From contig CM119371.1 in NCBI GenBank assembly GCA_051294905.1, forward strand, positions 21,082,001 to 21,146,000: DNA of 64,000 nt. The letters run 5' to 3'. Under the pieces are notes generated by a model, which did not search any database, had not been told where the DNA came from, and worked only from the letters and a program-made list of their open reading frames with translations. The number at the start of each line of letters is the position of its first letter. Position 1 is the first letter of the stretch. This document shows, one piece after another, positions 5,296 to 64,000 of the stretch. Both the position numbers and the translations under genes were made by a program. The stretch comes from Botryllus schlosseri. Its lineage: Eukaryota.

Positions 5296-5334
5296 TTTCC
5301 CGTATCCTCGGCTTCCGGCCGCAGGAGTGTCGTG

Positions 5335-5352: not shown

Positions 5353-5353
5353 A

Positions 5354-8232: not shown

Positions 8233-11200
8233 TACTTTATCGTCGTAATCTGCGGTGGGAATTGAAACACGTTCACACATTATCCGCCGTGCAAGATATC
8301 ACACTAGACGAATTGTCATACCGCCGCCTGATTAATGCTTAATCCGTTCGAACCATTTCACGCACTTTGATCATTACAAAAGTAAATTGTGACATGTTTG
8401 TTAGATGCATCCAATTCAACTAGAAGTGTCTAGTGCCCAACACTCGTAATATCGAAAAAGTACTTGCTGCACTGTTATTTGCTAAACGTGTTTTGCATTG
8501 TTGTTCATTTCTAGTATTGATTGAAATCGTTCTTGAACCCTCAAATAATAATTCCCGACATGAAACCAAGCCGCTGAAAGTCGTTACCATCACGAAGAAA
8601 CAATGTGTACGATGTTTGTCAAATGTGTCCTACCTGGTCAACAGAAAACAATTTTCACTCACTCGAAATGAAACCAATGTGATGGTCTCCACTCGATATT
8701 TTGTTTGTGTCAAATACTTTGCAATGAACACATTTGCGTGGTTGAGCTTTACATCATCAAGCTGTTATTTGTAAATCAAGATTTCGGTAAACTTGTAAAT
8801 GTGTCGTTTAACTAACCGACATTTAGTGATTGGGGAACATACCACTTCGAAATACTGCGTTGATCGTAATTTCCATCATCGTGGTAATCGAAGTACATTT
8901 CTTTTGAATTCATAACAATCGGCTACGACATGATAAATTTTTGACAAGTTATGCTTAGAAGATTGGTTGCATATCGCGAAAAATAATATACCACTCATAT
9001 TGATACTGTTACTCAATTGATCGATATTTTCAAACGAGTAAAATTTATTACTTGAGTTTCTCCGCTTAATGTAAATGCAAACTCAGCCGTCTTTTAACAT
9101 CACAAAGGCATTGATAAAAAGTAGACAATCAAACGCTACAAGTTTAACTTTTGTAGGTTGTGTATGATTACCCCACACAACTCATTTCTTACCAAAAGTA
9201 GATGGAATATATTCATGGTACACGAAAATACTCGACATTCCCATGCTACGAACCTGTACAATGATTGGTGACGCTTTCAAAACTGTTTCCATACCTCAAG
9301 ACCTTTATTGTGTGAATGGATGTTCATGTATCTTAATAATCAAATAGTTCAACACAGAACTAGTACGAACAGAAACACCAGCGTTGTTTACACAAAAGTT
9401 TGTATGTGTACAGTATGCGAATACCATGTGTAAGTCCAGCACAATTGCGGTATCCACCCGAGTTTAGTTAACACAATTTACGACACCGAAGTCGCGTCAT
9501 CTTTCGTAAAACAACAAACCAACCAAGCCTTCAGGATATGTCAACACCATAGCAGTAAATCAGCTACTCCAACAACAAAGTACATATGTTTTTTAGTTAC
9601 GGTGCTTACATCTTACACACAAATCAATCTACTTTGCTAACGAAAAGTGCTGAGTCATCACATGATTACCCTCACAACAAAACAGCTAGAAGATGTTATC
9701 ATACAAAAATATTCCTAACCCTTTGCGCACCAGTGACAAATCATACAACAAACATTTTTTGTGAGTCTAATTGTTGTTCAGTGTCAAGTCTACCTGTTGA
9801 AACGTACATTAAAACAACACAGTCACAATTCAATTAAAACCACGGATCTATTTTCATTTCGTCACATACAGAAAAATAAATCTTCTTTCCCCAACACATA
9901 CTTGTAACCAATCGCTTTCATTAAACACACAACTCCATAAAAGTATTTACTTTCTACAACATAGACATTCCGATGTAGTCAAGAAATATTAAAACGGACA
10001 CGACACGACTGAATGTAAGGGGATAGAAGTCTATCGCATCGATTTACATGTGGTCTTCGCTACGGTTTCAAAAAACGAATCATCTATTTTGCATTGGTCG
10101 AGACCGAGCGAGCCAGTTACATGTATTCGCGGTAATGATTTTGCTTGTCATATGCGAATGATAGGTTTGCTACTCCGACAAATCAAATCAACAAACAACA
10201 ACAATCTTCTGACGATCATAATAGCAATTTCATTTGCCACCCCTTCGTAATTGTACACACACGAAAAGTATATTGTACAACTCGGCAACTACGTTTAACA
10301 AGACCAATCACACTACCAGCGTTGAACACAAGACACCTACCCAAGTCAAAAATATCATACTGGTTTGGGCAACTGACGTTTACCTGTGTAAAATTATCAT
10401 TTTCACTTGGCGATCTATCCTTTCCTAGAGTAACAAACCCTTATCGTTTACAAATCTATTTTTTTCCCACAGCAAAAAACTATTTTCACTTGGAAAAATA
10501 CTTTTACCTAGAGTAACTAATCATTTTCTTTTGAAAATATATTTTCTCTCTGGGTAACAAACCCTTTTCGTTTGGAAAACTATCATTTACCTGAGTACCA
10601 ATACCGTTTTCACTTGGCAGTCCGTCGTTTACCTGGCTAAACATGTCATTTTCACTTGGAAATCTATTTTTTCCCAGAGTAAGAAACCTTTTTCACTTGG
10701 AAATCTATTTTTTCCCTGGGTAACAAACCTTTTTCACTTGGAAATATATTTTTTCCCCGGGTAACAAACCTTTTTTCGCTCGGAAATATATTTTTCCCGG
10801 GGTTACAAACCTTTTTCACTTGGTGGTCCGTCGTTTACCTGAGTAAAAATATCATTTTCCTTTGGGGGATCTGGCGTTTACCCAGTGTAACAATACATTT
10901 TCTCTAGGTCATCTAGCTTTTCCTAGAGTAACAAAACCATTTTCATTTTGAAATCTGACAAACACACCTGACAATTTGATATTTTTGTATATTGTTACAA
11001 CGGATAGCGACAAAATATACACCAAAAACAACTCCAATACATTTGTGTAATCGCATATTCACTTGTGCTGATGCAACCCATCAAAATCATCGGTTACCCA
11101 CATGCAATGTGCTGTTGTACATCGACGTTTATGTTTTCGGAAAATTGGACCATAGGCTTCGATAGTTCTGTGATGTCCGGGCTCGTGCTTTGGATTTTCC

Positions 11201-11282
11201 AGAGTCAAAATGTCTGAATAAAACACCTCCTTGACGATGGTTGGTATGTGGATAACGGTGTTCGGAAAACGGTTGGATTTAT
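8233..11282 (+). repeat. Left arm of giant inverted repeat (3050 bp)
   Basis: Reverse complement of 11994-15046; mirrored ORF pairs in the track (8433..8774/14506..14847; 9586..9837/13443..13694). By eye about 20 or fewer substitutions and three small indels. Confidence 0.97.
10400..10950 (+). repeat. Degenerate ~37-39 bp minisatellite (GTAACAAACCTTTTTCACTTGGAAATMTATTTTTTCCC-like)
   Basis: Motif recurs in tandem; mirrored at ~12325-12900 and present in a different arrangement at ~61530-62060. Confidence 0.85.
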
Positions 11283-11993
11283 GTCACCCATCGCGATAAC
11301 AATTCCAGGTCGAGTTTTCCCCCGCGTGTTTACTATATTGTGTCATTATTGGTCATGTATGTCTCGACATTCAGTTTGAAATCGGAAACCTTGATAAAGT
11401 ATGTAACCGGATCCGGATATCAACTCTGAATCGATAAACCAATGAACAATATTCAAAGTATTCATGTTACACCCTGTGTTTCCACGAAAAAATACCATCC
11501 AGACATACGTCGCGCTTGTTTGCCCACATCAGTATACGCGTAAATGGAGGTGTGTGACATTGCATGCAATGTGTTGGTATACAAACATCGATCCACAGAC
11601 ATTATCATAGCCGGTAGTTTTGATGTAGATCGAATGTCATCACACCCGATAACAATGTCATACCAATAAGCCACATTGCAATGACTCTGAGTCCGCGCTA
11701 TTACATCGATATTTCGGCACCGTTCACTGATTTACTCGATGGTGTTATCGTGTTGTAACATTACAAGATAGTCATGGCCCTATCTCCGGACAGACCACCC
11801 AGACCAATTGGATACATCGGTCAATATCCGTCGTGTTGTCGACACCGAAGTTTTCTGCTGCAGCGTTTGACCAAGGTGAACTATCGAATCACGGGTGCTC
11901 GAAATGATTGCGATCAGTCTTTCAGTCACGATCACTGGATGTCACTACTCCCACATAACGACTCCAGATAAATATCGTGAACAGTGATTCTGG

Positions 11994-14900
11994 ATAAATC
12001 CAACCGTTTTCCGAACACCGTTATCCACATACCAACCATCGTCAAGGAGGTGTTTTATTCAGACATTTTGACTCTGGAAAATCCAAAGCACGAGCCCGGA
12101 CATCACAGAACTATCGAAGCCTATGGTCCAATTTTCCGAAAACATAAACGTCGATGTACAACAGCACATTGCATGTGGGTAACCGATGATTTTGATGGGT
12201 TGCATCAGCACAAGTGAATATGCGATTACACAAATGTATTGGAGTTGTTTTTGGTGTATATTTTGTCGCTATCCGTTGTAACAATATACAAAAATATCAA
12301 ATTGTCAGGTGTGTTTGTCAGATTTCAAAATGAAAATGGTTTTGTTACTCTAGGAAAAGCTAGATGACCTAGAGAAAATGTATTGTTACACTGGGTAAAC
12401 GCCAGATCCCCCAAAGGAAAATGATATTTTTACTCAGGTAAACGACGGACCACCAAGTGAAAAAGGTTTGTAACCCCGGGAAAAATATATTTCCGAGCGA
12501 AAAAAGGTTTGTTACCCGGGGAAAAAATATATTTCCAAGTGAAAAAGGTTTGTTACCCAGGGAAAAAATAGATTTCCAAGTGAAAAAGGTTTCTTACTCT
12601 GGGAAAAAATAGATTTCCAAGTGAAAATGATATGTTTAGCCAGGTAAACGACGGACTGCCAAGTGAAAACGGTATTGGTACTCAGGTAAATGATAGTTTT
12701 CCAAACGAAAAGGGTTTGTTACCCAGAGAGAAAATATATTTTCAAAAGAAAATGATTAGTTACTCTAGGTAAAAGTATTTTTCCAAGTGAAAATAGTTTT
12801 TTGCTGTGGGAAAAAAAATAGATTTGTAAACGATAAGGGTTTGTTACTCTAGGAAAGGATAGATCGCCAAGTGAAAATGATAATTTTACACAGGTAAACG
12901 TCAGTTGCCCAAACCAGTATGATATTTTTGACTTGAGTAGGTGTCTTGTGTTCAACGCTGGTAGTGTGATTGGTCTTGTTAAACGTAGCTGCCGAGTTGT
13001 ACAATATACTTTTCGTGTGTGTACAATTACGAAGGGGTGGCAAATGAAATTGCTATTATGATCGTCAGAAGATTGTTGTTGTTGTTTGTTGATTTGATTT
13101 GTCGGAGTAGCAAACCTATCATTCGCATATGACAAGCAAAATCATTACCGCGAATACATGTAACTGGCTTGCTCGGTCTCGACCAATGCAAAATAGATGA
13201 TTCGTTTTTTGAAACCGTAGCGAAGACCACATGTAAATCGATGCGATAGACTTCTATCCCCTTACATTCAGTCGTGTCGTGTCCGTTTTAAAATTTCTTG
13301 ACTACATCGGAATGTCTATGTTGTAGAAGGTAAATACTTTTATGGAGTTGTGTGTTTAATGAAAGCGATTGGTTACAAGTATGTGTTGGGGAAAGAAAAT
13401 TTATTTTTCTGTATGTGACGAAATGAAAATAGATCCGTGGTTTTAATTGAATTGTGACTGTGTTGTTTTAATGTACGTTTCAACAGGTAGACTTGACACT
13501 GAACAACAATTAGACTCACAAAAAATGTTTGTTGTATGATTTGTCACTGGTGCGCAAAGGGTTAGGAATATTTTTGTATGATAATATCTTCTAGCTGTTT
13601 TGTTGTGAGGGTAATCATGTGATGACTCAGCACTTTTCGTTAGCAAAGTAGATTGATTTGTGTGTAAGATGTAAGCACCGTAACTAAAAAACATATGTAC
13701 TTTGTTGTTGGAGTAGCTGATTTACTGCTATGGTGTTGACATATCCTGAAGGCTTGGTTGGTTTGTTGTTTTACGAAAGATGACGCGACCTCGGTGTCGT
13801 AAATTGTGTTAACTAAACTCGGGTGGATACCGCAATTGTGCTGGACTTACACATGGTATTCGCATACTGTACACATACAAACTTTTGTGTAAACAACTCT
13901 GGTGTTTCTGTTCGTACTAGTTCTGTGTTGAACTATTTGATTATTAAGATACATGAACATCCATTCAGACAATAAAGGTCTTGAGGTATGGAAACAGTTT
14001 TGAAAGCGTCACCAATCATTGTACAGGTTCGTAGCATGGGAATGTCGAGTATTTTCGTGTACCATGAATATATTCCATCTACTTTTGGTAAGAAATGAGT
14101 TGTGTGGGGTAATCATACACAACCTACAAAAGTTAAACTTGTAGCGTTTGATTGTCTACTTTTTATCAATGCCTTTGTGATGTTAAAAGACGGCTGAGTT
14201 TGCATTTACATTAAGCGGAGAAACTCAAGTAATAAATTTTACTCGTTTGAAAATATCGATCAATGGAGTAACAGTATCAATATGAGTGGTATATTATTTT
14301 TCGCGATATGCAACCAATCTTCTAAGCATAACTTGTCAAAAATTTATCATGTCGTAGCCGATTGTTATGAATTCGAAAGAAATGTACTTCGATTACCACG
14401 ATGATGGAAATTACGATCAACGCAGTATTTCGAAGTGGTATGTTCCCCAATCACTAAATGTCGGTTAGTTAAACGACACATTTACAAGTTTACCGAAATC
14501 TTGATTTACAAATAACAGCTTGATGATGTAAAGCTCAACCACGCAAATGTGTTCATTGCAAAGTATTTGACACAAACAAAATATCGAGTGGAGACCATCA
14601 CATTGGTTTCATTTCGAGTGAGTGGAAATTGTTTTCTGTTGACCAGGTAGGACACATTTGACAAACATCGTACACATTGTTTCTTCGTGATGGTAACGAC
14701 TTTCAGCGGCTTGGTTTCATGTCGGGAATTATTATTTGAGGGTTCAAGAACGATTTCAATCAATACTATAAATGAACAACAATGCAAAGCACGTTTAGCA
14801 AATAACAGTGCAGCAAGTACTTTTTCGATATTACGAGTGTTGGGCACTAGAAACTTCTAGTTGAATTGGATGCATCTAACAAACATGTCACAATTTACTT

Positions 14901-15046
14901 TTGTAATGATCAAAGTGCGTGAAATGGTTCGAACGGATTAAGCATTAATCAGGCGGCGGTATGACAATTCGTCTAGTGTGATATCTTGACGGCGGATAAT
15001 GTGTGAACGTGTTTCAATTCCCACCGCAGATTACGACGATAAAGTA
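11994..15046 (-). repeat. Right arm of giant inverted repeat (3053 bp matched; element continues to 18468)
   Basis: Reverse complement of 8233-11282. Sequence beyond 15046 is homologous, inverted, to ~57330-59205, so it belongs to the same element. Confidence 0.97.
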
Positions 15047-16879
15047 TTGTACCGGTTATTGTTCAACAAAGGAAATTGTTGTTTCATCTTTAGTCTTGGT
15101 TACTGAAGACAATTACATTTGTAAAATATTTCCTGATATCCACAATACGCTGCGTGGTTTTTACGAACACGGCTTAATCTTCCCAATCAAAACATTTCAG
15201 ATATGTTAATCTAGTTTCACAAATCGAAATGTTAATAACAATGTTTCTGAAAAGTTTGTTGGTGTCGTGATAACCTTCTACACAACCCTGATCTAATAAT
15301 GTCATGATTTAATAACCAAGTCATGATCGAGTATTACAAAATCTCATATGTCAAAATCAATGTGTCAATTCGTGAAAATTTTCAATATAACACCCGCGTT
15401 TGATCGTAAGAATTCTCAACTACGTGTTCGGACATTCAAATTTCGTATACTCAAATGTAATATGTTAATCTCAAACCACACACCGAGTAGTATTTACTTT
15501 GGTTTATAAAATTTACCGAGTAGTAATTACTTTATCTTACAGCATAGTAACGACTTTTACAGTTGAACAAAGATGATTTGGTGGTATATGACTACAACCG
15601 AACTTGTTATGGATTTTAGATTGTAGCGATTGTATGTACTCGCGTAATCTTGTCTTCTTCTTTCTGTATAGTTGGTTGGCCGAGTTACAAACGGATTTAC
15701 TTGACAAGGTTTTCATGATTTACTCTTTTGAGTATGGTAAGATGTTAAAATTTCGAGGTGTAATACTATTTCCGTTCACTCGATTACAACAAAAAATACC
15801 CAGATAAGTTGCTCAAGGCTTCTTTTGTTTCAAATCAACATGTGAATAATCAGTTATTGTGACAAGTTGAAATGTCGTACCGAAGTTGTGAGTGGGAACA
15901 GTACGCGATTGTGTAAGTGTGAGGACAGCGAGATGGTGATCGTGTGAATAAATTAATCTGAAACGCATTGGAGTGAAAGTTTACCCAGTCTGTCTGGTAA
16001 TCCTACTTCAAATCGTGATATGACAAAGTAGCTTGAAATATTCCGATTCAACTCATCGCATCGCAACTCGATCGTGGTATGCACAAGTGGTTGTCAAGTA
16101 AGAAATATTTACAACAGGTGCTATTTCATTGATTGACTTGATTGTGTGTAGTAACACATTAAAATATAGCGATAGTAATTACTGAAACTCTATTTGACAA
16201 ACGGAAAACTGTGAATAGCGTTGTAAGGTTTCATTACTTGTTTCAAATCAATATGCGTATAATCTCTAACTATGGTTGGGTTGAAAGTTGGTAGTAATGT
16301 TTGTCAATCTATTTCAATTCGGACTATGTCAAGTCCAAATATTTCATTTTGGATTATCTGGATTTACCTTTAGTACATCTCGCGAATGGATTCCGACGCC
16401 GCGCTATAACATTTTTGATGATAAGGACTCGAGGATTTTCATGATAGAGTTGACGAGTGATAAGATGCGTGTTTTTGTTAAGAGTTTGATTTCATGTTGA
16501 TAAAGACAATAACTGTATAATGCACATACTTGTGATTCTTGATTCTTGTAGAATTATAGTTGGTATTGATTCTATAAGTGTGAAAACAGCGGCGTGGAAT
16601 GTGCGAATAATTCGATGTAGCTGAAAGTCGGCGTCAGTAATATTCGGGTTATGGTCGAATCAAAAGATCACGAAAAGATTTCTCAAAATAATTAGAATTG
16701 TACCGAATTAACACATTCAGATACGAATCAACTTGGTTTGTGTAGTAAGTTTCATTTCGAGTTGGCAAATTGATACATTGGTTGAATATTCTCATAATTC
16801 TTATCGCGCAACTAAAGTCAGCCACTGTTCGAAGTGTCAAAACATATAGCGACCACCAGAAAGTGTCAAATTGTTGGTT

Positions 16880-17660
16880 TTCGAATCACCGTCTGCGACG
16901 GTTCTGGGACAAACTAATTACCGAAATATTACCTTGTGAGCGGACATGAGGGATTGCTATGTCTGAAGCATTATCCGGTGAGTGGTCGTTGGATTTTAAA
17001 ATTATATCACACCCTTTTGAATAAGCGTTCACTTCACAGAGGATTAGGGTTAGAGCGGAAATACGTGACAATTTGTCGCTATTCAAGTTACCGACACTGG
17101 CGGTCTGTTATTCGTTACTTGTTAAATCTTACCAGCGAAATCAAGTTCTGTGACAAACTGATTACTAAAATTTCACCGCGTGAGCGATCGGTATGGTTAT
17201 GACACCAAGTCGTGAAAGATGGTTATGTGCGAGACATTATCTTGTCAGTGATCGCGGGGTTTTGCAAATATTTCACACCTTTTTGAATAAGCGTTAACTT
17301 CACAAAGGATTACGGCTAGAATAGAAATAAGTGACACTTTGTTGGTATTCAAGTCTCGCCGGTGGTGTATCTGTTATTCGACACTTATTACACGTATCAC
17401 GAAATTAGAGTGAGAACATAAAGCATCAAGTTGTTGTTTTCGAATTTTGATGCCGAGGTGATAAATTTACGCATTCAATTATAATTCAACTTTGGTTGTG
17501 TATTGAGTGATAGATCGATATGCCGGAAGTGGTATCTTGTGAGTGATCGTAGGATTTTACAAATATTTCACATCTTTTTGAAGTGTTAGTTTGCGAACGC
17601 GACTATTGTTGATATTCGAATCGCCGTCTGCGCCGGCTCTGTGGCAGACTAAATACCCGA
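16880..17660 (+). repeat. Old internal tandem duplications (~270-290 bp period) within copy A
   Basis: AAATATTTCACACCTTTTTGAA-like blocks at ~17000, ~17267 and ~17561; CGAATC.CCGTCTGCG.CGG blocks at ~16882 and ~17617. Confidence 0.7.
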
Positions 17661-17689
17661 GAGTACGACTTACCGCCACCACCTATATC

Positions 17690-18435
17690 CGAAAACGTTA
17701 GCATGCGACCGATCCCTATCTCTGTAACGCTATCATGCAACCGGAGCCTATACCTGGAACATTAGCATGCCGCCGCCGCCTATACCCGAAAGTACGAATC
17801 ACGAACACGAGTTTTCATTACGAGTCACCGCCGCAGCCTATACCCGAAAGTACGAATCACGACCGCACCCATAAGACACAAAAGCCGCTCGCCACCCCCG
17901 CCATAAGACGCAATAGCCGCTCACCACCCCCGCCATAAGAAATAAGAGCCGCTCACCACCCCCGCCATAAGACACAATAGCCGCTCACCACCCCCGGTTT
18001 TCCAGCCGCTCACGACCCCCGCCATAAGACGAAAACGTTAGCATGCCATCCCCGCCATAAGACGAAAACGTTAGCTCGCCACCCCCGCCATAAGACGAAA
18101 ACGTTAGCTCGCCACCCCCGCCATAAGACGAAAACGTTAGCTCGCCACCCCCGGTTTCTCGTTAGCTCGCCACCCCCGCCATAAGAAATAAGAGCCGCTC
18201 ACCACCCCCGCCATAAGACACAATAGCCGCTCACCACCCCCGGTTTTCCAGCCGCTCACGACCCCCGCCATAAGACGAAAACGTTAGCATGCCACCCCCG
18301 CCATAAGACGAAAACGTTAGCATGCCACCCCCGCCATAAGACGAAAACGTTAGCATGCCACCCCCGCCATAAGATGAAAACGTTAGCATGCCACCCCCGG
18401 TTTCGCGTTAGCATGCGACCCCGCCCATAAGAACC
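17690..18435 (+). repeat. Subterminal tandem repeats (33-bp unit CCACCCCCGCCATAAGACGAAAACGTTAGCATG and variants)
   Basis: Directly visible tandem units; a higher-order block repeats at 246-bp spacing (AATAAGAGCC at 17941 and 18187); the array ends about 35 bp from the ACTACT terminus. Confidence 0.92.
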
Positions 18436-18519
18436 CCAGGCACACCCAGACCGATCTATATAACTACTAACATGAAACTTATAAATGATGAAAAAAGAAT
18501 AAAAATCATCCCAATCACC

Positions 18520-25500: not shown

Positions 25501-25638
25501 AAGTGGGTTACTGATTTAGCCCATCGAGTGTCTCACTAAAAAGACAACAATTTCCCTCGTTTTGATTTATTTCAACCATAGCGCATCATTTCGACCAAAT
25601 CAGTTTTTGGGTTTTATACGGGAAATTCTAGTGCTTGA

Positions 25639-45392: not shown

Positions 45393-47023
45393 TAGGGTTG
45401 TCCAAAATGTGGAAAATCTTACAAATCCTCCGTTGTAATGTCTTATTCTATAGATTATTGATAAAAAACGACACTGGGCCTAAAAGAAGCTCACAGGAAG
45501 GCCGTTAAGATTTCGTGCAAAGCGTTTGAAAGCAGCTGCCAAAGAATGGGCGTGCCACCGACCATCGAACGGCGAGAAGACTAGTAATCACGAAACCACG
45601 GCTCTTGATTGGCTGATCGGCTATGCTTCAATGACCACGACAGTAGCAGCTTGCTGATTATGTGATCAAGGAGTCTGCTACCGGCGGCGATTCTGAAAGC
45701 GCATTGTATGTAGGTTGACAGTTAATGATTTAGGATTGATTCAGGGTATGTTGAGGTACGAAATACATGATAAACAAACAGCTGCTTCACAAAAACGTCT
45801 AAAGCATGACTGCTTTATTGTGAAGGACACCGCCGTAGCCTAAATGCCTTGTTTTCATTGAGGGAAAGCATAGGTGCTTATGCAAGTGGCGACGGATTCC
45901 AAGTTTCAGAAAGGATCTATCATTATTGAATACAAATATAAAACTTAACAATGACACTACTTTGTCTGTGTGATCTTATTGGGCTCAGGTTGTAGTATAT
46001 AGTTGAAGTTTTGAAAGCCTCAAGGATCGGCTGAATCAGCGGGTTATGCTTGGCACTTATCAGATGCTTACATCAAATTGTGTTCACTTGCAAGTGTTGT
46101 CAAAGTCCTTAATGCTGATGCAGAAAAGGGTTGTAAAAGTAAGCACATACTATGCTGGATATGATATGTCAAAGTCCTTAATAATCGTGCAGAAAGGGAG
46201 TGTAAAGGTAAGCACAGACAATGATGCATAGTGCACAGGATCCAGCATAGTTTGTATATCATATCAAGCATAGTATGTGCTTACATTTACACCTCGTTTC
46301 TGCGGCATCATTAGTGACTTTGGAAACACTTACAAATGAATTCAATTTACTGTAAACATCTGATAAGTGCCAAGCTTAACTGTCTGATTCAGCCGATCCC
46401 TGGAGCATTCAAAACTGCAACACAACCTGAGCCCAATAAGATCACACAAACTATATTGTCATTGTTAAGCTTTATATTTGTATTCAATAATGATATATCC
46501 TTTCTGAAACTAGGAATCTGTCGCCAATTGGATAAACGCCAATGCTCTCCCTCGTTGAAAACAAGGCATATAGGCTACGGTGGTTTCCTTCACAATAAAG
46601 CGGCCATGCTTTGGACGTTTTTGTGAAGCAGCTGTTGTTTGTTCATCATGTATTTCGTACCTCAACATACCCTGAATCAATCGTAAATCATTATCTGTCA
46701 ACCTACATACAATGCGCTTTCAGAATCGCCACCGGTAGCAGACTCCTTGATCACCTAATCAACAAGCTGCTGCTTCCGTGGTCATTGAAGCATAGCCGAT
46801 TAGCCAATCAAGTGCCGTGGTTTCGTGATTACTAGTCTTCTCGCCGTTCGATGGTCGGTGGCACGCCCATTCTTTGGCAGCTACTTTCAAACGCTTTGCA
46901 CGAAATCTTAACGGCCTTCCTGAGAGCTTCTTTTAGGCCCAGTTTCGTTTTTCATCAATAATCTATAGAATAAGAAGTTACAACGAAGGATTTGTAAGAT
47001 TTTCCAAATTTTGGACAACCCTG
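45393..47023. mobile_element. 1.63-kb fold-back (almost fully palindromic) DNA element with hAT-like ends
   Basis: YAGGGTTGTCCAAAAT termini, ~770-bp imperfect inverted arms (45393 to ~46167 and ~46256 to 47023), ~90-bp centre, perfect 8-bp TSD CTGTGTAT (45385-45392, 47024-47031). Confidence 0.93.
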
Positions 47024-50253: not shown

Positions 50254-51988
50254 CGCTTGTGTCTTATATTCTCTGCTTTATTTTTCATTCGGTGTGCACT
50301 GTGCATGGCTCTTCTTTACTTCGCCTAGGCTAGGGTGGGTGTCTTATCTTAAATGCTACTCCAATTTGTTTCGACATCTTCCTATCTTTTCATTGTATCG
50401 CACTATTGTGGTGTTTTGAAACGATGGATATATTAATAAACCTGATCGATTGACAGCATTGGACAAATCAACCGACTCCACTGACATTGTATAGCTAATC
50501 ATATGGGTGCAATTTATCGGAGTGGACATATTTTCAGAGAAATTGCTGGCAGGGCAAATATGGGGACGGGACCAGCGTAAATCATCAACTTGACCAAGCT
50601 GACTTCTGTAACTATTGGTGCGCGACTACAGCAATGGAAGGAAAAGGGGAAGGTTGATTGGTTTGCCTAGAAATGACCCCGAACGCCTGACTTCTTCTCA
50701 TACCACTGAGAGCTCGCAAAGTGATGATAATGGCCTCTGCCACGAAAAAGTTACCGTAATTTTGAACTTTCTCGCTCACGCATTGAAACATACAGCTCGG
50801 TTATATGGTGGAAGGGCTAGTTTAAATGTGCATATACCGAAATGGCAACGAATGCATTGCACGCCCCATTTTGCGCCGCTGGAAGAAACGTATTCTCACA
50901 AAAAACAGGAACCGCAAATTTACGAGCGCTGTCCATTAATGCCTTAGAATGCATAAAAGATGTACTAAATGCCTCTATACGACTGGTAAATAGGCTACAG
51001 TAGCCTAAATTTATTGGTAGCCCATAAATACACTGTAAATCCGCAAGGTCGTATTGAACACTTCATAACACTTTTTTCTGAGTACAGAGACACTTTTTGG
51101 GCATATAAACGCATTGGGCCATTATCGTCGCAACGCTTCTGCGTATTTCTCCGTTTATATGTAACACTTCGCCACTGGACCTTATTTTCAAGAAAATTTA
51201 TACTTTGTAATTTATCATCAATTTCGCATTCATAAAGTATCGGTGGGATTGGAGATCACAAAAAATCATGGTATATGTATAATAATGTTATTCAACTGAC
51301 CAAACCACTAAGTTGAAGGGTAATATTACAATAAAATATACATATTTCCCTGTGATGCAGAGGGGTCACCACCTTCGTTACGGTAGAGCGCGCTGGATTT
51401 CAGTTTCGAATTTGAATTGGTGGCTCGTCAGGCTTCAAGCAGAGAGTAGGGTACACTAAAAGACTTGGCAGAATGGATATATTAAAGCAGTTTCTGCTAC
51501 CTGGTGGCGTAAAGGATCATAACGTCCATGTACTGTAAGGTATGGAAATGCGGTAAATGTTATTGAATATATGTAATGTGAGAATAGTCATAAAATGAAC
51601 TCGTTTTGACATTGTGCACAGTAAGGTCGTTTGTTTTAAATGTTTTAGTAGGCTACTGATATCCCTTATTCATATGAATGTTCTTTAGATGCTTTGTAGT
51701 ATATGATTCGTCTGATCTTATTGCTGGAGGATCGAGCTTCGAATTTGATAATATACCAGGCTGCGACCAGGTACAAGGTACTGATGGGAAGCTGCTATCG
51801 AACTAACTTTTTTGATATATAGATAAAGGGATGCTCTCTCCATCCACACTGAAATAACCCTATGTAGGCGATATTGTGGTCCATTGTGGACAAGTACTGC
51901 AATATCAGCAATTGAATACCGGTATGACAGTCATGCAACGGTTTTGATTGTTTTTCAACTGCAACACATTTTACACTGTACTGCTTAC

Positions 51989-52829
51989 TGAAGCGATTTT
52001 TTGACATGTCAAAATAGGTCAAAATTTTGTCAAAATTGTACCGTCTGGTGAAAAATTGCCGAAATTGTTTACAAAATCAAAATGTTTTTGGCAAACTTGC
52101 ATTTCATTTCTATCATAGATGATTGCACTGTCGGTGAACTTATCATTTTATAATTTACATCTTGTAGCCTACTTTATAGTCCTACCGTTGTAGACGGACC
52201 ATCGTCTGCTCATTGTGAATCATAGACTGTCAAATGAAGCAAATGCTCAACGTAGCCTACTGTACTATCCTAACTAAAGCAACACTGCGTGAGCATTGGT
52301 TCTTCCATTAGAAACTGTATGATGAAAAATTGCGATGTAGACAACCTTGTCATAATGAGAGAGAGGGCAGTGTACTCACAACTTCAGCGTAGCCGGCCAA
52401 CAACTGCCGCTGGTGAACGTTCTTTCTTCATTCTTGCCAAGCTACTTGGTTAGGACAGACACTTTCTACCCGAAAATGTTGGAAAGTATCTTTCGTTGTA
52501 CTACACCAAAGTTTTAATTATTTCTACCATAATACGAGATGTAACTAATACTAAAATTCTCCACGGGTCCAGATTTCGATAAAATAAGGTTTTTTCATGT
52601 AAAAATTTGTCAGTTTTCATGCTATAAGATTTTTTCAGGTCAAACTACTTCGAAAGAACAGACAGCTCCATCCAGAAATAAAGATAAGTACCGGTAATAC
52701 AATTCTAACATTATGTGAGAAACACCTAATTTAAGTACGTGGGTCAAAATTAAGTTTTTCATCATCAAAATATGTGTGAATTTGGATTTTTAGTCAAATT
52801 TCCCTTTTTAGGTCCAAAAAATCGCCCTA
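51989..52829 (+). mobile_element. Older copy of the hAT family seen at 19630-20506
   Basis: Collinear similarity over ~840 bp; right TIR ...AAAAAATCGCCCTA; remnant AAGERSFFILAKLLG*DRHFLPENVGKYLSLYY; left TIR decayed, no TSD. Confidence 0.85.
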
Positions 52830-52964
52830 ATAATAGCACAGCAAAACAAACAATCTTTTCAACAAACCATGGATCACAAGGGGTAGTATTTGTTTCGCCC
52901 AATCCGTAAATTTGACTTTTCTGAGTTTATATTATGATACGGTAACTGAACTAAACTCTATGTC

Positions 52965-55938
52965 GCAGGTAGTATGTATTGAAATTGGCACCTTTTTGAA
53001 ATGCATTTGCTGTATGGAATCCTGGTAAGCATCACAGTGATTTGTAAGTGAACTGTAGAGAATGAATTTGATTCTGTTTGCATTCGGTTATCTTCGTGAT
53101 AATGATTTTTATGAGTGTCTGCTGATAAAATTTCACTAAATTTGTTAACAATCCAGGAAGTATACTACCTGTACCAGAGTAAATTGGTGGTAACGTCATG
53201 TGCAACTTTCCATTCCATTACCTAATTATTCTATGAAAGACACCCTTCAGTCATGCACAACTTATTGCAGAAAATAACAACTGTATCCAGTATGATATCT
53301 GCGGGAGAGAGAGAGAGAGAGAGTCTTTACTGAGTAGTTCATTTGTATTGCGAATTTTCGCAACAAATATTTTTTTTTCAATAGTCTTGGATTGATCCTC
53401 AAATTCGTCCAACTGATGTCTACTCTTTAAAAAGAGCCCCCTGGGTCTACCGTGCCTGCGCTATCAGACAATGTTGACAGTGACGTGAGGAGTCGTTCGT
53501 AACGGGTTTTGTGCCAGCACAGTCATCTTATGCGATGCATAGACCTTCTCAAGAACCCATGGATACATGTGATTATGTAAGCCTATTTCTTCATTTTATA
53601 TATCACCATTGATTATGTAATTTGCTGGTTTTTGCAGTCCTACTTTTCTCCCGAACTATCTCGCAGAGTAGCTGACGGACTATTCGATATGAGCTGAAAA
53701 AGGCTTCATCTGTGTACACTGTACAGTGTACAGTGAACTGTATACTCTGAACACTGAACAGAGATGTAGTTGAAAGTAATGAGCTCGTGTAACTTGTACT
53801 TTAACTATTGCTTACTGAACTAGAATGGACTAGGTCAGTGGTTCTCAACCTCGGGGCTGAGCACCTCTCCTGCGCTTCTGTAACCTGCCTGTGTGAAATA
53901 TTTATATTTACTTGTGCATAAAATTTACAATTTTCCTTTGGTATTTATTGTATTTTCTAGGAGCAGCAATTGGATTTGACCAGTACAGAAAAAGAGCCGC
54001 CATGGCATGCCACGAATCAGGGACTCATCAAGCCTGGGTTGCGACTGATGGAAAGAATATGAAAAATGCCCTAAAGTGCAGGTAGTATGTATTGCAATTG
54101 GCACCTTTTTGAAATAGATTTGTTGTTTGAAATACTGGTAAGCATCGCCATGTTTCGTAAGTAAACTGGTATATGCTTAGATAATGAATTTGATTCAGCT
54201 GCATTCGGTTATTTTTATGAATGTTTGCTGGTAAAATTTCACTAAAAGGATTAACAATCCAGGAAAATATGGTACTCGGGCTGGAGTAAAATTGGTGTTA
54301 AGGTCACATGCAACTTTCCATTACAATAATTAATTGTTCTATGAAAGACAAGTCACATACAATACATCCAGTCTGATATCTGCGTAAATACTGAATGCTG
54401 GTAACGTCATATTTTGTGATAATATTGCTGATGTACAAAGTTCTTTAGAGTTCTCCACTAGTTGCTGACGATTACCCCTGACTAGTCTCAGCCGAAAATA
54501 TTCGGGCTCATTTCAATATGCATATACTATTCAATTTTATATTGAAGTTTTGTACCTCGAAGAAGCTGTTCGAATATTGAATAGTTCCCTTGTATTGCAA
54601 ATTTTTAAAACAAGTATTTTCTTTTCAACAGTCTTAGATTGATCCTCAAATTCATCCAACTGATGTCGACTCTTCGAAAAGACCCCCTGGTTTCACCGTG
54701 CCTCTGCTAACAGACAATGTTGATAGTGACGTGAGCAGTCATCTGAACGGATTTTGTACCGGTGCAGTCATCTTTCGTGATACATACTTTTGCCTCAAGA
54801 ACCCATGGAAACATGTGATTATGTAAGTCTATTTATTCATTTCATATATCACCATTGATTATGTAATGTGCTAGTTTTTGCAGTCCCAATTTTCTCAAAA
54901 ACTATCTATATATGCTATATGAGCTGAAGAGAGGCTTGATCTGTGTACATTGAACAGAGGTGTTGTTGAATGTAAAGAGCTGATGTAACTTGTATTTAAA
55001 CTACTTCCTACTGAACTATACTTGGAACATCAAATGGAGATCATTTCCCATGTCGTGCTAATTCCAATTAATTTTGTTAGTTAAATTTAATCAGGAATGA
55101 AGGATTTTGAAAGATTGAGAACAGTTACAATTACTGCAATGAAGAAAAAGTATTCAACACCTTCGATAAGATGTCACCAAGGTTTTGTACTAAAGACAAT
55201 CAATGTGTCCTTTGTCTGGTATATTTTCTCGTCTCAATTCAAAGCAGCTATAAAATCTTGGAATCAAAGTTATATGTAAAGCCTACCGTATGTCAATTAT
55301 AATAATGGAAAACCGAACCCATAGGGATAACAATTCTACTACATTTATTGTCGGATCTTGTTTGCAATCAATTACATTTTCAGCGAAACGAGGTTGATGA
55401 AGTCAACTGTCTTCTTCTCAAAGCCAAATTGAGAGACAAACGAATATAATCCAAGACCCAAGCGCATGTCTTATTGAAACAGGTACCGTAATCTTTCTTT
55501 TTTGTGGACCATACAAATTTACATAGACCTGCGACGTTCTGCTATAACTGTCATTCTGAGTTACAGTTCTGCATTCTCAGTGTTGCCTGTGCGTCTGAAT
55601 GTCAATGTAAATGTCAAAGTGGCCGAATTGAAAAAAACGCAGACCTGATTCAAGATGTTTTTATTAGTCGTTATGCTAATTTTAGTCCTTCTCAGTGATA
55701 GGATTTTACATGTATCCGAGCGCCTTTCCTAAGCTAGTGTAACCTGCATGTGTGAAATCTTTATATTTATTTCTGCATAAAATTTAGAATTTTCATTGAC
55801 ATATTCAAAACTTTGGAATTTAATCACATTTTCAAGGAGCACAACTTGGAGTCGACCAGTAGAAAAGAAACAAACGCCATGGCACGCCACGAATCAGAGA
55901 TTGACCGAGCCTGGATTGCAGCTGATGGCAAGAATATA
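52965..55938 (+). repeat. Old tandem duplication inside the CACTA element
   Basis: 52965 to ~53821 matches 54078 to ~55018, and ~53878-54062 matches ~55738-55938, with indels. Confidence 0.85.
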
Positions 55939-56020
55939 AAACTGCTTCAGTGAAAATGGAGTATTCAGAAACATTCTTGACGTTTTGAGCTGCTACGCAT
56001 TGGATTGTCATACCCTAAAG

Positions 56021-56312
56021 GAGTGGTTCTTAAACAGGAGAAAACATTTGAAGCGACGTGAAGCCGCTGTCAACTAAAATCTTTTTCGCACATGCATGCA
56101 TGGCAGCTTGTAGTTATTTCTCTGTGTATGGTCAGAATTTAATATTTGAATATTCTCTCATCAACAACCATTACCGTCACTGCCATCCAACTATCCGTTG
56201 GGATTTACAGCGTTCTGGTTGCTTTTTTTAATTTTATTATACGACAACAAGAAGTGTGTGAAATGTTTTGCTGCCATATCGGAGCGTGTTCAAAAATGTT
56301 TAAGAACCACTG
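56021..56312. mobile_element. hAT-Charlie MITE
   Basis: TIRs (G/C)AGTGGTTCTTAAACA; TSD CCCTAAAG/CCCTAATG (7/8). Confidence 0.8.
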
Positions 56313-59300
56313 CCCTAATGACTTCAATATTTCATATTTTGCAGCAGACTGGTAAATAACAACAAAATCTTTTTCTATAAATCTGCAAAATTTGTATGGA
56401 CTCAAAGAAACTATTTCTTTGTTATTTGAATAAAAGTGATTGGCATTAAGCTGATATAAATACTTCTAATGCAAGCCCTAGGATATTTTTAGCAACCCCA
56501 ATTTCATTAAGAGTGAAAAAATACTTATGGTTGTTTATCGTGGTAGTGGTAGTGATACTGATACATTCATTGTTTGTTAGTTTACAATAAAATTAGAAAT
56601 TTACAAGCCGTAATTTGATCAGTTTTAAATAAGTTGTAATGATTTGTGTTGATCATGTTTTCCGCTAACGGACGTAACCAATTAATTTGATTACATGCCC
56701 CTGTCACGAAAGTTTAGGATACTAAATGATATTATGTTATCACTATCCCTAATTCCCTATGCATTCATTTTCATCATTGAGCGATTTGCATGATATTTGT
56801 AGTGAGTTTGCTCTTAATCATTTGTGATGTTCGTGATTTCATCGACTCTTCTGGGAACGGTTTCAACTGCTGATCTGAATTTATCAAACCCTGTCACAGC
56901 AGCTATTGGAAATTTCAATGTTTGCACGTATTTAATCACCCAGGTTGGGTATTATAAGCGTCATTTATTCATGAATCAATAAAATCTGATTTTACTTTGA
57001 GCCCTGCGTTCCGGTGACTAGTCAACCAGCCACTTTGAGACTGAACACTTTTTAGGTAAACACCTTAAATTTGAACACTTCGCAACACTTCTAGGCGTTC
57101 AATTTTTGGATCACGTTTCGTGTTCAATTTTCCGGGCTGAGCAACACTTCAAAATTTACAGTGTAGTCTGCTGTTCACAGTCGCAACAAGAATCACAAGT
57201 ATACACATTTACACATTCGTTTATTACTCTGAAATAAAACTCTTCACAAAAGCACGCACAATCGTATCATTAACTTTTTTATCATCCCCAAAATTATTCA
57301 AGTATTCCTTGGCTGAAAATCTACCACGGAGCCGGCGTAGACGGTGACTCGAATACCAACAATAGCCGCGTTCACAAACTAACACTCCAAAAAGGTGTGA
57401 AATATTCTCTACAAGCGCTCACAAGATAACACATAAGAATAGCCATCTCTCGTGGTTTGATGTTACAAAGGTAGGAATTACGCACAAGTAATATTTTGAT
57501 AATTAGTTTGCCACAGAGCCGGCGTAGACGGCGATTCGAATATCAACAATAGCCGCGTTCACAAACCAACACTTCAAAAAACGTGTGAAATAGGTTACAA
57601 ATCCCACGATCGCTCACAAGATAACACCAAAGACATAGCCATTTCTCGCGTCTTGTCATTACATACATCCCAATCGCTACAGTGTAATATGTCGGCGGTT
57701 GTTACTATCAAGTAATAAGTAATGAATAACAGTACCAGCGCAGACCGTGATTCGAAAACCAACAATTTGACACTTGCACGCGATCGCTATATGTTTTGAC
57801 ACTTTGGAACAGTCGTTGACTTTGCGTGATAAGAATCATGCGAATATTCAAGCAATGCATCAATTTGACAACTTGAAATGAAACTTGCTACACAGCTCAA
57901 GTTGATTCGTATCTGAATGTGTTAATTCGGTACAATTCTAATTTGAGAAATCTTTTTAACGTGATCTTTTGATTCGACCGTAACCTGAATATTACTGACG
58001 CCGACTTTCAGTCACATTGAATTATTCACACATTCGCGCTGCTGTTTTCACACCTATAGAATCAATACCAACTATAACTCTACAAGAATCAAGAATCACA
58101 AGTATGTGCATTATACAGTTATTGTCTTTGTCAACTTGAAATCCAACTCTTAATACAAACACGCATCTTATCACTTGTCAACTCTATCATGAAAATCCTC
58201 GAACCTGTATTATTAAGAATGTTATAGTACGGCGTCGGAATCCGTTCGCGGGATGTACTAAAGGTAAATTCAGATAATCCAAAATGAAATATTAGGACTT
58301 TGACATAATCTGAATTGAAATAGATTGACAAACATAACTACCAACTTTCACCCAGTCACATTTCGAAATTATACGCATATTGATTTGAAACAAGTAATGA
58401 AATATTACAACTATATTCGCGATCGGACTTTCCGTTTGGCAAAGATAGTTTCAGAAATATTATCACTATGACATCTCAACATTTTAACATCTTACCATAC
58501 ACAAAAGAGTAAAATACAAAAACCTTGTCAAGTCAATCCGTTTGTAACTCACCGAACCAAAGCAAAAAGTGTCCATACGAAAAGTAGGCAAGACTATCCA
58601 AGTAATTACTACAACCCACAAACATATCAAGTTCGGTTTTAGGCATATACCACCAACTCGTCTTTTTTTTTTGTTCAACTGTAAAAGTCGTTACTATGCC
58701 GCAAGACAAAGAAATTACTATGCGGTATATTTTGTAAGACAAAAGTAATTACTTCTCGATGTCGGCGACTTGAGATTAACATAATATATTTGAGTATACG
58801 ACATTTGAAAGTATGACCATCGTAGTTTCTTACAATCGAACGCAGGTGTTGTATCGAAAATTATCGTGATGTAAACATAAGGATTGTCACATCGATTTAA
58901 CATATGAGATTTTGTAATGGTCTATCATGACTTGATTATTAAATTATTCGCGTTAATTAGACCCGGCGTTGTGGTAAAGGTTATTATGACAGCAACAAAC
59001 TTTTCAGTGCCGTTGTTATTAACATATTGAGTTGTAAAACTATGCGTGTCTGAAATGTCCTTGAATGGAAAATTATTCCACCTTGGTACATATCACCCTG
59101 CGTATCGCGGATATCAGAAAATATTTTACAAATGTATTTGTCTCCACTAACCAAGACTAAAGATGAAACAACAATTTCCTTTGTTAAACAATAACCGGTA
59201 CAATACTTTATCATCATAATCAGCAGTGAGAATTGAAACACTTTCGCACATTATCCGGTGTCAAGATATCACACTAGGTGAATTGACATACCGCCGCTTG

Positions 59301-62300
59301 ATTAATACCTAATCCATTCGCACCCTTTCACATACTTTGATCATTACAAAAGTAAATTGGAATATGTTTGCTAGATGCATTCAATTCAGTTAGAAATGTC
59401 TGGTACACAACAATCGTGATATCAAGGAAGTACTTGCTACGCTGTAATTCACTTAACGTGTTTTGTATTGTTGTTCATTTGTAGTATTGATTGTTTTTGA
59501 ACCCCCAAATAATAATTCCCGACATGAAACCAAACCGCTGAAAGTCGTTACCATCACAACGAAACAATTTGTACGATGTTTGTCAAATGCATCCTATAGT
59601 TAGGTGTACTAGAATTATTTGTGTAACACATACGCCGACAATGCAATCGAAAATTTTTCCGTTGTCATTCGCTAAAGTAAATGTCATCACAATACTCATC
59701 AAGCTGTCATCTGTAAATCAAGATTACATCCAACTTGTAACTGTATCGTTTAACTACCGGGTTGCATCAGTTTGCTATTTTTGTCATTTAGTGACTGCTG
59801 AACATACCAAACGATACACATTCACTTACGAAATACTGTGTTGGTCGTAATTTCCATCATCGTGATAATCGAAGTACATTTGTTTCGAATTCGTAACAGC
59901 CGACTATGCCACGACGATTTTTGGAAAAGTTATGCTTGGAAGATTGGTTGTATATCACGAAAAATAATTACCACTCATATTGATACTGTTACTCCATTGA
60001 CCGGTATTTTCAAACGAGTAAAATTTATTACTTGAGTTACTCCGCTTACTATATTCAAATGTAAACACAGCTGTCTTTCAACATCACAAAGACATCGATA
60101 TAAAGTATACAATCAAACGCAACAAGTTTTACTTTTGTAGGACACTAATTATTATTCCACGCATCTCATTTCATACTAAGTGTATATGAAAGATGTTCAT
60201 GGTACACGAATATATTCGCTCATGCTACGAACATACGCAATGATTGGTGACGCTTTCACACTATTTCGATTTAGTGTAACAAAAACAACAACAACAATTT
60301 TCACTCTCTTGACTTACGAAAACAACAGACGAACCTTCATTCAATATTTTGTTTTTGTCAACAAGTTACTTTTTTCATGAGACCCCCACTACTCTTACAA
60401 AAGTACGAAAGATATTTACATCACACAAAGTAATCAACTTTACTCGATATTCTCACATTACGAAACTAAAGAATGGTTGGTTTGACTCTACAAACTGTTT
60501 CGTTACCTCAAGACCTTTATTGTCTGAATGGTTGTTCATGTGTCTTAAGAACCGAATAGTTCAACACAGCACTAGTACCAACAGAAACATCAGAGTTGTT
60601 TACACAAAAGTTTGTATGTGTACAGTATGCGAATACCATGTGTAAGTCCAGCACAATTGCGGTATCCATCCGAGTTTAGTTAACACAAATTTATTACAAC
60701 GGAGCCACGTAAACTTTCGTGAAAGAAAAGCATACTCACTTCCAGAGGGTTATTTCAACGCCATAGCAGTACTCCAACAACAAAGTACACATGTTTTCTA
60801 GTCACCGTCCTTACATATTTCACATAGATCAATCTACTTTGCTAACGAAAAGTGCTGAGTCACCACATGATTACCCTCACAACAAAACAGCTAGAAGATA
60901 TTATCATACAAAAATATTCCTAACCCTTTGCGCACCAGTGACAAATCATATAACAAACATTTTTTGTGAGGTGAATTGTTGTTCAGTGTCAAGTCTACCT
61001 GTTGAAACGTACATTAAAACAACGCAGTCACAATTCAATTAAAACCACGAATCTATTTTCATTTCGTCACATACAGAAAAATAAATTTTAATTTCCCAAA
61101 ACATACTTGTAGTCAAGAAATATTTTTATTAATCAAAATCATCGACTTCTGTTTACGGTGTTAGTGTGTGCATGTCATACACGTGGGGACCGTATTAAAA
61201 TGGACACGACACGACTGAATGTAAGGAGATAGAAGTCCATCGCATAGATTTACATGTGGTCTTCGCTACGGTTTCAAAAAACGAATCATCTCTTTTGCGT
61301 TGATCTAGACCGAGCAAGTTAGTTAATGGCCATGATTGTGTTTGTCATATGCGAATGATAGGGTTACTGTCAAATCTACATACAACATCCTTCTGGTACT
61401 CAAAATAAAAATTTCATTCTCTCCCTTCGTAGTCATATACCGCCAACTCGGCTTTTTTGTTCATCGACAGCGGCGTTTAACAAGACCAACGACACTGAAC
61501 CCACGACGTTTACCTATGTAAAATTACCACTTTCACTTGACAGTCCGTCGTTTACCTGGCTAAACATATCATTTTCCTTTGGAGATCTGATGTTTACCCA
61601 GAGTAACAAACCCCTTTTCCTTTGGAAATCAATTTTTTCCCTGGATAACAAACCTTTTTCACTTGGAAATATATTTTTTCTCTGGGTAACAAACCTTTTT
61701 CACTTGGAAATATATTTTTTTCTCTGGTTAACAAACCTTTTTCACTTGGAAATATATTTTTTCTCTGGGCAACAAACCTTTTTCCCCGGGTAACAAACCT
61801 TTTTCCCTGAGCAACAAGCCATTTTCACTTGGTGGGTCGTCGTTTACCTGAGTAAAAATATCATTTTCCTTTGGAGATCTGGCGTTTACCCAGTGTAACA
61901 ATACATTTTCTCTTGGTCATCTAGCTTTTCCTAGAGTAACTAATCATTTCTCCTGGGTAACAAACCCTTTTCGTCTGGAAAACTATCATTTACCCGAGTA
62001 CCAATACCGTTTTCACTTGGAAATCTATCTTTTCCCTGGGTAACAATATCATTTTCGTTTTGAAAACTGACAACCACACCGGACAATTTGATATTTTTGT
62101 ATATTGTTACAACGGGTAGTGACAAAATATACACCAACAACGACTCCGATACATTTGTCTAATCAAATATTCACTTGCTCTGATGCATCCCATCAAAATC
62201 ATTGGTTACTCACATACAATAACAATGTGCTGTTGTACATCGACATGTATGTTTTCGGAATTGGCGAATAAAGGGGTTTCCGATATGTCTGTGATGTCCG

Positions 62301-63443
62301 GGTTCGTGCTTTGGATTTTCCAGAGTCAAAATGTCTGAATAAAACACCTCCTTGACTTTGGTAACTGGTTGATACACGGATAATGGTGTTCGGAAAACGG
62401 ATGAATTTATGTTCCCCATCGCGCTAATAACTCCGGGTTACTTGTGAGTTTCCTCAGGTCTGTTTACTATATTGTGTCTTTACTGGTCAATACATGTCGC
62501 TCCAGTCAGCTGCAACCGGATCACTAATATGAGAAAGTGTGTGGGCCTGATCCGGATATTCACTCATGAACCAACGACCAATATTCAAGTAAACATGTTA
62601 CAGACCGTGTTTTGTCTCCATGAAAAATACCAATGCATACACCATCACATCAAGTACTTCACGATTGTTCACAAGTATTCGCGTAAACGAGGTGTACATA
62701 CAATGTGTCGGTGTACAAACATCATGGAAAACAAATTCATGTTCTCAAGTATCATCATGCGACGACTCTGTACATTCAATGTGGGCATAGATGACTTGGG
62801 GACAGACAAGCAGCCATATTTGGACGTAACACGATCTTAGTATGAGCCGCCTCAACCCAACTTGTGAAAAATGAATCTCACACGAGTACAACCCTTTCAC
62901 TGGTTCACACCTTGATTTTGCAAGATTTTTCGGATTCTCATGTAGACTTGCATCGTGATCCAGACCTCGACTTAATCGGGTTGCGTAACTCGCTCAACCC
63001 CTGCGTATCGTTGGTCATAACCTGCTAACTTTTTCGCTGAGACCGCAGTGTTTCACCTGGTTTTATGTATTTGGTGATTACCATCGTTATCAATCTTTCA
63101 CGCGATGAATATGTCGGATGTCGCTACTCCCACATAACGACTCCAGCTAAACATCGTGAGCAGTGACTCCGGATTGAAATCGTAAACAGGGACTCTGTGT
63201 GTGTGTGTGAATCTCGAGTTCGATTACGATTAGATAATGTAATCCAGGGTGTGTCTCTGCGAGCTGAAGGCGGATTTCGTGTTAATCACACCGCAAGAGG
63301 GTGCTATCTCGTAACTCGACAGGTCAACATAAATCGCGGTTGGAAACTTTTGGTCTAGTTGATCCAGCTACGTATTGAAACGTTGTACCCACACAGCCCA
63401 TTGAGAAAACGTTGTCGTTACCTGACCATATCCACGAGTAAAT

Positions 63444-63719
63444 ATGGGACTACGCGTAACTGTCCATAGATTCCTCTGGCCCCACACCGTGGTTTTACGA
63501 CACAGACAAGATGCAGCGGTGGAAATATTGAAAATGAAAAACGATACCTTGGTGACATTTGATTTGGATTTTACACCTGATGAACCATACACTCGATTGG
63601 TACATTGGGATGACAACTCTATCGTCGAGGTCAAGGGAAAAGAAATGTACAGATTTGTTGGTGTTGTGGATATTCAGCGAAAATCAGGGTATATGGTTGT
63701 GTATGGTTCGCATATTTGA
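63444..63719 (+). CDS. Small hypothetical protein (91 aa) in the loop of copy B
   Basis: ATG in AAATATGG context, globular-looking composition, tightly abutting the next ORF. No homologue recognised. Confidence 0.4.
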   Translation: MGLRVTVHRFLWPHTVVLRHRQDAAVEILKMKNDTLVTFDLDFTPDEPYTRLVHWDDNSIVEVKGKEMYRFVGVVDIQRKSGYMVVYGSHI

Positions 63720-63967
63720 CTGAGAATATATCGGTATGCATAATGCACTGTCCATGTATCATGTCGTGTGTCATCTATGCCCACATTGAATGTACAGAGT
63801 CGTCGCATGATGATACTTGGGAACATGAATTTGTTTTCCATGATGTTTGTACACCGACACATTGTATGTACACCTCGTTTACGCGAATACTTGTGAACAA
63901 TCGTGAAGTACTTGATGTGATGGTGTATGCATTGGTATTTTTCATGGAGACAAAACACGGTCTGTAA
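63716..63967 (+). CDS. Small hypothetical Cys/His-rich protein crossing the loop/arm junction of copy B
   Basis: DVCTPTHCM...FTRIL is conserved in copy A (minus 11589-11530) mainly through synonymous changes; the left-arm mirror carries TGG>TGA. Start codon uncertain. Confidence 0.45.
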   Translation: MTENISVCIMHCPCIMSCVIYAHIECTESSHDDTWEHEFVFHDVCTPTHCMYTSFTRILVNNREVLDVMVYALVFFMETKHGL

Positions 63968-64000
63968 CATGTTTACTTGAATATTGGTCGTTGGTTCATG

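Follow-up and report, generated by a model that had tools for sequence, protein, structure and literature searches.

Two palindromes with nested fold points in Botryllus schlosseri: a probable family of Maverick/Polinton-derived satellites with apparent re-matching of the arms in diverged copies

The DNA studied here is a 64,000-nucleotide stretch of the Botryllus schlosseri genome (assembly GCA_051294905.1, contig CM119371.1, positions 21,082,001 to 21,146,000 of the forward strand), hereafter called the window, with positions counted from its first letter. It carries two related palindromic elements, designated A and B, each of which consists of long inverted arms that enclose a unique loop (Table 1). 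Element B runs into the right edge of the window and is the main subject of this report; element A lies to its left and serves as the diverged family member against which the fold-back structure of B can be read.

An ungapped comparison of the B arms reproduced both the arm match and the loop length that had been given in a preliminary description of this DNA; the sole mismatch lies at 62745, and the pairing ends sharply on the inner side. Self-BLAST recovers the B arm pair with an E value of 3e-115, and the next-best inverted pair within 57164-64000 spans 35 nt at 71%. Arm identity is 99.6% in B and 99.3% in A, versus 75-82% between A and B. The divergence of B from A, likewise noted previously, shows in an identity of 74.6-87.4% in BLAST blocks and of 82% over 4,722 aligned columns without gaps. 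None of the 12 read-through frames of B and of the loop plus right arm of A contains a Pfam family, the longest open frame in B encodes 143 amino acids (aa), neither A nor B shows an SSB-like gene in its arms, and the folding of the B loop is no more stable than that of five shuffles (-109.8 versus -107 to -116).

Table 1. Features of palindromes A and B and of the adjoining transposon (window coordinates)
Feature	Position	Strand	Basis or remark
Element B, left arm as preserved	57166..62795	+	aligns collinearly to A 11994-17655 (reverse complement) and to the A loop
Element B, part of left arm with visible mirror	62565..62795	+	230/231 identical to the reverse complement of 63770-64000
Element B, loop, 974 bp, unique	62796..63769	n/a	ungapped arm comparison; joint recurs in runs X1, X4 and X14
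Element B, right arm, first 231 bp, ended by window edge	63770..64000	-	arm comparison
Element B, stretch equivalent to the whole A loop	62411..63172	+	alignment; 385 bp in B arm plus 377 bp in B loop
Element B, intact 91-aa open reading frame (ORF) in loop, absent from A	63444..63719	+	ORF scan; four full-length relatives
Element B, degenerate 41-42-bp tandem array within arm	61500..62070	+	Tandem Repeats Finder; BLAST; A counterpart 10348-10956 plus mirror
Element A, left arm, left side cut	8233..11282	+	99.3% to the reverse complement of 11994-15046 (self-BLAST)
Element A, loop of 711 bp that lacks the 91-aa ORF	11283..11993	n/a	arm comparison
Element A, right arm, complete, 6,475 bp	11994..18468	-	BLAST
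Element A, subterminal G+C-rich tandem repeats, 32-33-bp unit	17694..18433	+	Tandem Repeats Finder
Element A, terminal ACTACT, the Maverick (ACT)2 end motif	18463..18468	+	motif search; motif as given in the available text of PMC8097293
6.1-kb element, 10-bp terminal inverted repeats CACTG...CAGTG, TA on both sides	51031..57163	n/a	adjoins the truncated left end of B

The identity between A and B is patchy, ranging from 47 to 98% per 100 bp (57800-62400 versus 11994-16840). Exact matches as long as 87 bp stand next to blocks that align poorly; this could reflect recombination between subfamilies or conserved cis-acting sites. The outer arm of B additionally contains older internal duplications (57187-57258/58090-58165 and 57324-57452/57511-57648); since these have counterparts in A (16952-17405), the arm grew partly through local duplication.

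The fold points of the two palindromes are nested. The 231-bp paired segment of the B arm is homologous to the A loop over its entire length (62% of columns; z 11.5 against 300 shuffles), and so are the 154 bp at 62411-62564 (66%; z 13.6), the mirror of which would lie past the window; the four segments of the A-loop/B alignment yield z values of 13.6, 11.5, 3.8 and 14.7 (300 shuffles each). The homology of a part of the B arm to the A loop had been recognized in the preliminary description and is upheld, while its size of about 300 bp has to be replaced by 231 bp seen paired, or 385 bp if the arm continues. The B loop holds approximately 600 bp that are absent from A, and B is therefore not derivable from A. 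As judged from the alignment, A could most simply have arisen from a B-like palindrome when a single template switch or asymmetric deletion removed about 980 bp, the loop gene among them. With the A loop collinear inside B, there is no need to invoke separate origins of the two palindromes, although these may have occurred. The fold point of B falls near the midpoint of the stretch that corresponds to the A loop (385 versus 377 bp), possibly by chance.

The B stretch, or part of it, is present in 20 listed sequencing runs from 10 studies. Four runs (X1, X4, X14 and the RNA run X23) were compared with 62070-63769 at 85% likeness; their contigs are mostly 100-200 bp long, and contig depth is not a copy number. 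X4 and X14 stem from other studies, and X14 carries another organism label. In three runs, 21,975, 495 and 166 contigs matched the 1.7 kb. Two of the 12 listed joints change strand, and both correspond to the fold of B: the opposite-strand joint 62795/63755 was found in five contigs of X1 and one of X4, and the joint 62785/63751 in one contig of X14. The latter contig departs from B at 13 of 116 loop letters (about 11%), and contigs beside the joint have one T more at 63754 and a different letter near 63764. Variant letters next to the joint mean that distinct copies have one fold point in common. Together with the two related palindromes in the window, these variant copies with the B joint represent multiple dispersed copies of the same structure. 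The earlier view that this is a replicating class of elements and not a one-off rearrangement is borne out by the fold joint in contigs of three studies with differing letters, and by diverged full-length relatives of the loop gene. One 424-bp loop contig of X4 has a single difference from B and a depth of 130, versus 7-20 for most of the diverged contigs listed, which suggests a young burst, with the proviso that depth is no copy number. No fold joint was detected in the RNA run X23, in which just 45 of 12.9 million reads matched and 93% continued unlike the stretch, so that this run is uninformative on expression; among the listed runs that match the B stretch, there is no RNA run.

The intact ORF in the loop of B has four full-length relatives (99, 73, 75 and 67% identity) among five candidates drawn from 5.8 billion proteins. 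Their longest contigs measure 922-1,075 bp, and two further cluster members lie on contigs of 1,192 and 2,005 bp; we infer that these sizes match the isolated loops expected in short-read assemblies. A tblastn search of the 91-aa ORF against the window returned only itself below an E value of 1. It belongs to no Pfam family (none of eight window ORFs tested matched), it had no usable match in the ESM Atlas, and none of the 74 pattern matches in viral contigs or of the 223 in metagenome contigs was confirmed. Among 1.84 billion representatives no remote relative was found, one of the two matches being its own cluster; a 300-aa repeat protein (E value 4e-4) was rejected as spurious. The AlphaFold model of the protein has a predicted local distance difference test (pLDDT) score of 36.9. 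Among the 40 entries listed of 283, four are ORF variants, three of which change an amino acid, and 17 contigs of X1 lack one base at 63537; both findings count against strict selection. Contigs of several runs depart from the loop ORF (63480-63527, 63751) into sequence absent from the window, and the summed depth in X1 is greater over the ORF than over the remaining loop. These loose ends and the depth point to further subfamilies that have just this gene in common.

The near-identity of the arms within each element has to be set against the divergence of the family. At 62751, the letter C accounts for 84% of the depth in X1, 95% in X4 and 100% in X14, but both arms of B read A; at 62658, G accounts for 99.7%, 55% and 100% in the same runs, but both arms of B read T. 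If a letter is uncommon in the family yet mirrored within one copy, either arm-to-arm copying took place after the lineages had split or a fresh fold-back occurred at the very same point. The two arms of a copy thus seem to be brought back into agreement once copies have diverged, although a fresh fold-back is the alternative. The arms of A differ at 22 mismatch or gap columns; 13 of the 17 substitutions could be polarized with B (two were dropped because of a third base and two because they lie at gaps), and eight of them arose on the left arm and five on the right. Such a split fits arms that would have been identical at insertion and have been drifting since. The preliminary description had offered independent palindrome formation and re-homogenization of the arms as alternatives. 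The rare letters on both arms of B favour re-homogenization, and independent formation loses its standing as a requirement in the light of the nesting of the A loop in B. Homogenization may occur at each replication and through a panhandle, an intermediate through which adenovirus ends are repaired; gene conversion in the chromosome is a possible route as well. The ratio of summed depth in arm and loop (7.9 in X1, 3.0 in X14, 0.87 in X4) was rejected as a measure of copy number, as the runs are inconsistent.

The likeness of the arms might instead stem from their youth. Each subfamily would then go back to a separate, recent copy-back event, with a non-palindromic parent or helper that differed from case to case and had diverged beforehand, and no continuing homogenization would be needed. 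Such a history would account for the differing fold points of A and B, and a weak microhomology is indeed found at the A junction (7 of 9 letters, with a one-letter gap allowed, between the continuation of B and the start of the A arm); moreover, snapback genomes of adeno-associated virus (AAV) arise anew during replication (available text of PMC8235507). We nevertheless regard separate copy-backs as improbable, since a copy about 11% diverged in its loop folds where B does while the B arms differ by just 0.4%, minority letters stand on both B arms, and one deletion from a B-like palindrome suffices to explain A.

Assigning the palindromes to a known class of elements depends on their ends, and on the left these are lost in both copies. 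The position 57164, previously taken as the start of B, is actually part of the TA beside the right end of the 51031-57163 element, which is putatively CACTA/EnSpm-like, and not the natural end of B. The homology of B to A ends near 57320, which is equivalent to 17650 in A. The outer left end of B, that is, the counterpart of A 17656-18468, was found neither upstream of the CACTG element nor inside it (local alignment scores 22 and 24 versus shuffled maxima of 29 and 27); since an upstream counterpart of the last 0.8 kb of A (tandem repeats plus ACTACT) is missing, the left terminus of B has been lost. As the left termini are gone in both A and B, neither copy permits a comparison of target site duplications (TSDs) of 6 bp. 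Both elements are cut on the left exactly at the end of a CACT-type transposon followed by TA (8224-8234; 57155-57165). For A, the cut adjoins a ...GAGTG end and then TA, and no partner end of this transposon was found in the window; for B, the second end plus TA lies at 51029-51040. Adjacent deletion by CACT-type elements may be a common route of palindrome decay. With the terminal part of A added, the estimated complete lengths are 13,661 bp for A and about 13,566 bp for B, which would place the right end of B at about 70,065.

The one natural terminus preserved, the right end of A, carries the ACT half of the (AGT)2//(ACT)2 motif (18463-18468), which is the commonest Maverick end motif according to the available text of PMC8097293. 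Another terminal motif of Mavericks is (AG)3//(CT)3. Membership among the Maverick derivatives is likely on the strength of this one end motif. Neither A nor B is an autonomous Maverick: the core genes, which encode a protein-primed PolB, a retroviral-like integrase, an ATPase, a protease and capsid proteins, are absent, and the visible inverted arms of A already measure at least 3,050 bp, with an estimated 6.3-6.5 kb for complete arms, versus 46-1,447 bp for Maverick terminal inverted repeats (TIRs) in the available text of PMC8097293. Taken together, B is probably a non-autonomous, nearly all-palindromic derivative of one Maverick/Polinton end, about 13.6 kb long when complete, that would have spread with the polymerase and integrase of a helper.

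A foldback cut-and-paste DNA transposon of the FB/Galileo type that is unrelated to Mavericks would share many of these traits, in particular inverted arms of great length that contain tandem arrays, and the lack of a transposase (no Pfam match in the read-through frames); its arms would be kept alike by chromosomal gene conversion, as are those of the Y-chromosome palindromes. FB-type transposons have TSDs of 7-11 bp and a cognate DDE transposase family. That other foldback elements are present in the window (45394-47022), and that neither a helper nor a TSD was seen in it, can be counted in favour of this assignment. However, A ends in the Maverick motif, with tandem repeats in subterminal position before it, and the differences between the A arms are scattered and fall on both sides, giving no sign of strong conversion after insertion, some of which may still have occurred; we therefore judge a foldback transposon to be quite improbable. 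An artefact of assembly or polishing, or a one-off inverted duplication at the locus, is highly improbable and largely refuted by the joint in contigs of three studies with variant letters adjacent to it: the inverted match does reach the last base of the window, and polishing can bring near-identical repeats closer to each other, but the assembly retains one difference between the B arms and 22 mismatch or gap columns between the A arms, and another family member in the window is a palindrome folded at a different point.

Several observations weigh against the derivation of a replicating, arm-matching family from Mavericks and should be kept in mind. The pairing of the B arms is visible over 231 bp only, as the window ends at 64000, and the middle third of the A loop aligns weakly to B (z 3.8, equal to the best shuffle). 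The run X1 is possibly the window's own sample. The A-type joint is not among the 12 listed joints though A-type loose ends are common, which means that the method misses joints and provides no census of fold points. The majority letters at 62751 and 62658 derive from short contigs that are not phased to the B joint and perhaps come from subfamilies with other fold points, and X4 shows no excess of arm depth (0.87). Furthermore, ACTACT by itself occurs 19 times in the 64-kb window, and neither a helper element nor a 6-bp TSD nor a B terminus is seen in the window.

For a satellite derived from a Maverick/Polinton end, we propose the following course of replication. One displaced strand would snap back into a stem of about 6 kb with a loop of about 1 kb, and the end of the stem would rebuild the origin for protein-primed copying. 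In the snapped-back state, one arm could be corrected against, or re-synthesized on, the other, so that new mutations would come to stand on both arms. An occasional template switch or deletion near the centre would move the fold point and found a subfamily; A would represent a B-like element shortened by about 980 bp on one side of its centre, the loop gene included. Maverick/Polinton replication in animals is inferred and not observed: the standing model invokes a single-stranded racket-like intermediate (available text of PMC4196379), and according to the available text of PMC8097293, no Maverick/Polinton virion has been observed. A palindromic family present in many copies, whose fold points move and whose mutations are mirrored, would make this replication model testable from genome data alone, and it offers a concrete target in the form of free hairpin DNA in germ cells. 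As a tentative and rather doubtful extension, the family might consist of germline-integrated snap-back satellites of an animal Polinton virus, in which extrachromosomal hairpins erase the arm differences in each round, the capsid of the helper keeps the length near 13.6 kb irrespective of the fold point, and some members carry their own small gene, with an effect on the helper or on the replication of the satellite itself. If true, Polinton replication and packaging would have left a fossil record in this family.

The remainder of the window contains further mobile elements. A Gypsy-like long terminal repeat (LTR) retrotransposon (1083-5489) possesses two identical 136-bp LTRs and an open gag-pol frame of 1,376 aa on the minus strand; the identical LTRs and the open frame indicate a very recent insertion. 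The segment 36965-41137 has the appearance of an LTR element with an internal deletion: 382-bp direct repeats (99.2%) enclose 3.4 kb that contain long open frames and 16.6 copies of a tandemly repeated 63-bp unit. Two unrelated foldback elements are located at 45394-47022 (1.6 kb, 87% self-complementarity) and 43930-44231 (0.3 kb, 68%). An open frame of 188 aa on the minus strand (25614-26180) has no Pfam match and may be a hAT transposase remnant.

Elements that resemble A and B in one or another respect are known from several systems. Kapitonov and Jurka reportedly described, in 2006, non-autonomous Polintons with lengthened inverted repeats. Foldback transposons such as Drosophila FB and Galileo share with A and B the long inverted arms, the internal tandem repeats, a variable centre and often the lack of a transposase, whereas the end motif and the size of A are closer to those of Mavericks. 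Intact vertebrate Mavericks, as described in the available text of PMC8097293, are 12.7-24.6 kb in size, are flanked by 6-bp TSDs and bear TIRs of 46-1,447 bp; A resembles them in its (AGT)2//(ACT)2 end, in having terminal inverted repeats and in its estimated 13.6 kb. The TIR of the anole Polinton is 584 bp long (available text of PMC3014272), whereas the arms of A and B reach about 6.3-6.5 kb, core genes are lacking, and one small orphan ORF resides in the loop. Non-autonomous Polintons are gene-poor and depend on a helper, as A and B would; a zebrafish member, Polinton-1N1_DR, is named in PMC9341505. In AAV snapback subgenomes and copy-back defective genomes (available text of PMC8235507), one end of a linear genome is likewise inverted-duplicated around a loop and depends on a helper; these are, however, transient parvovirus products, whereas A and B are integrated, inherited, multi-copy and diverged into subfamilies. 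No description of palindromic Polinton satellites was found in a literature search by titles and abstract openings, in which subscription papers and Repbase were thinly covered, so that this is no proof of novelty. To the study of Polinton replication, the present data add that two fold points are nested within one family and that the arms have seemingly been re-matched after the copies diverged.

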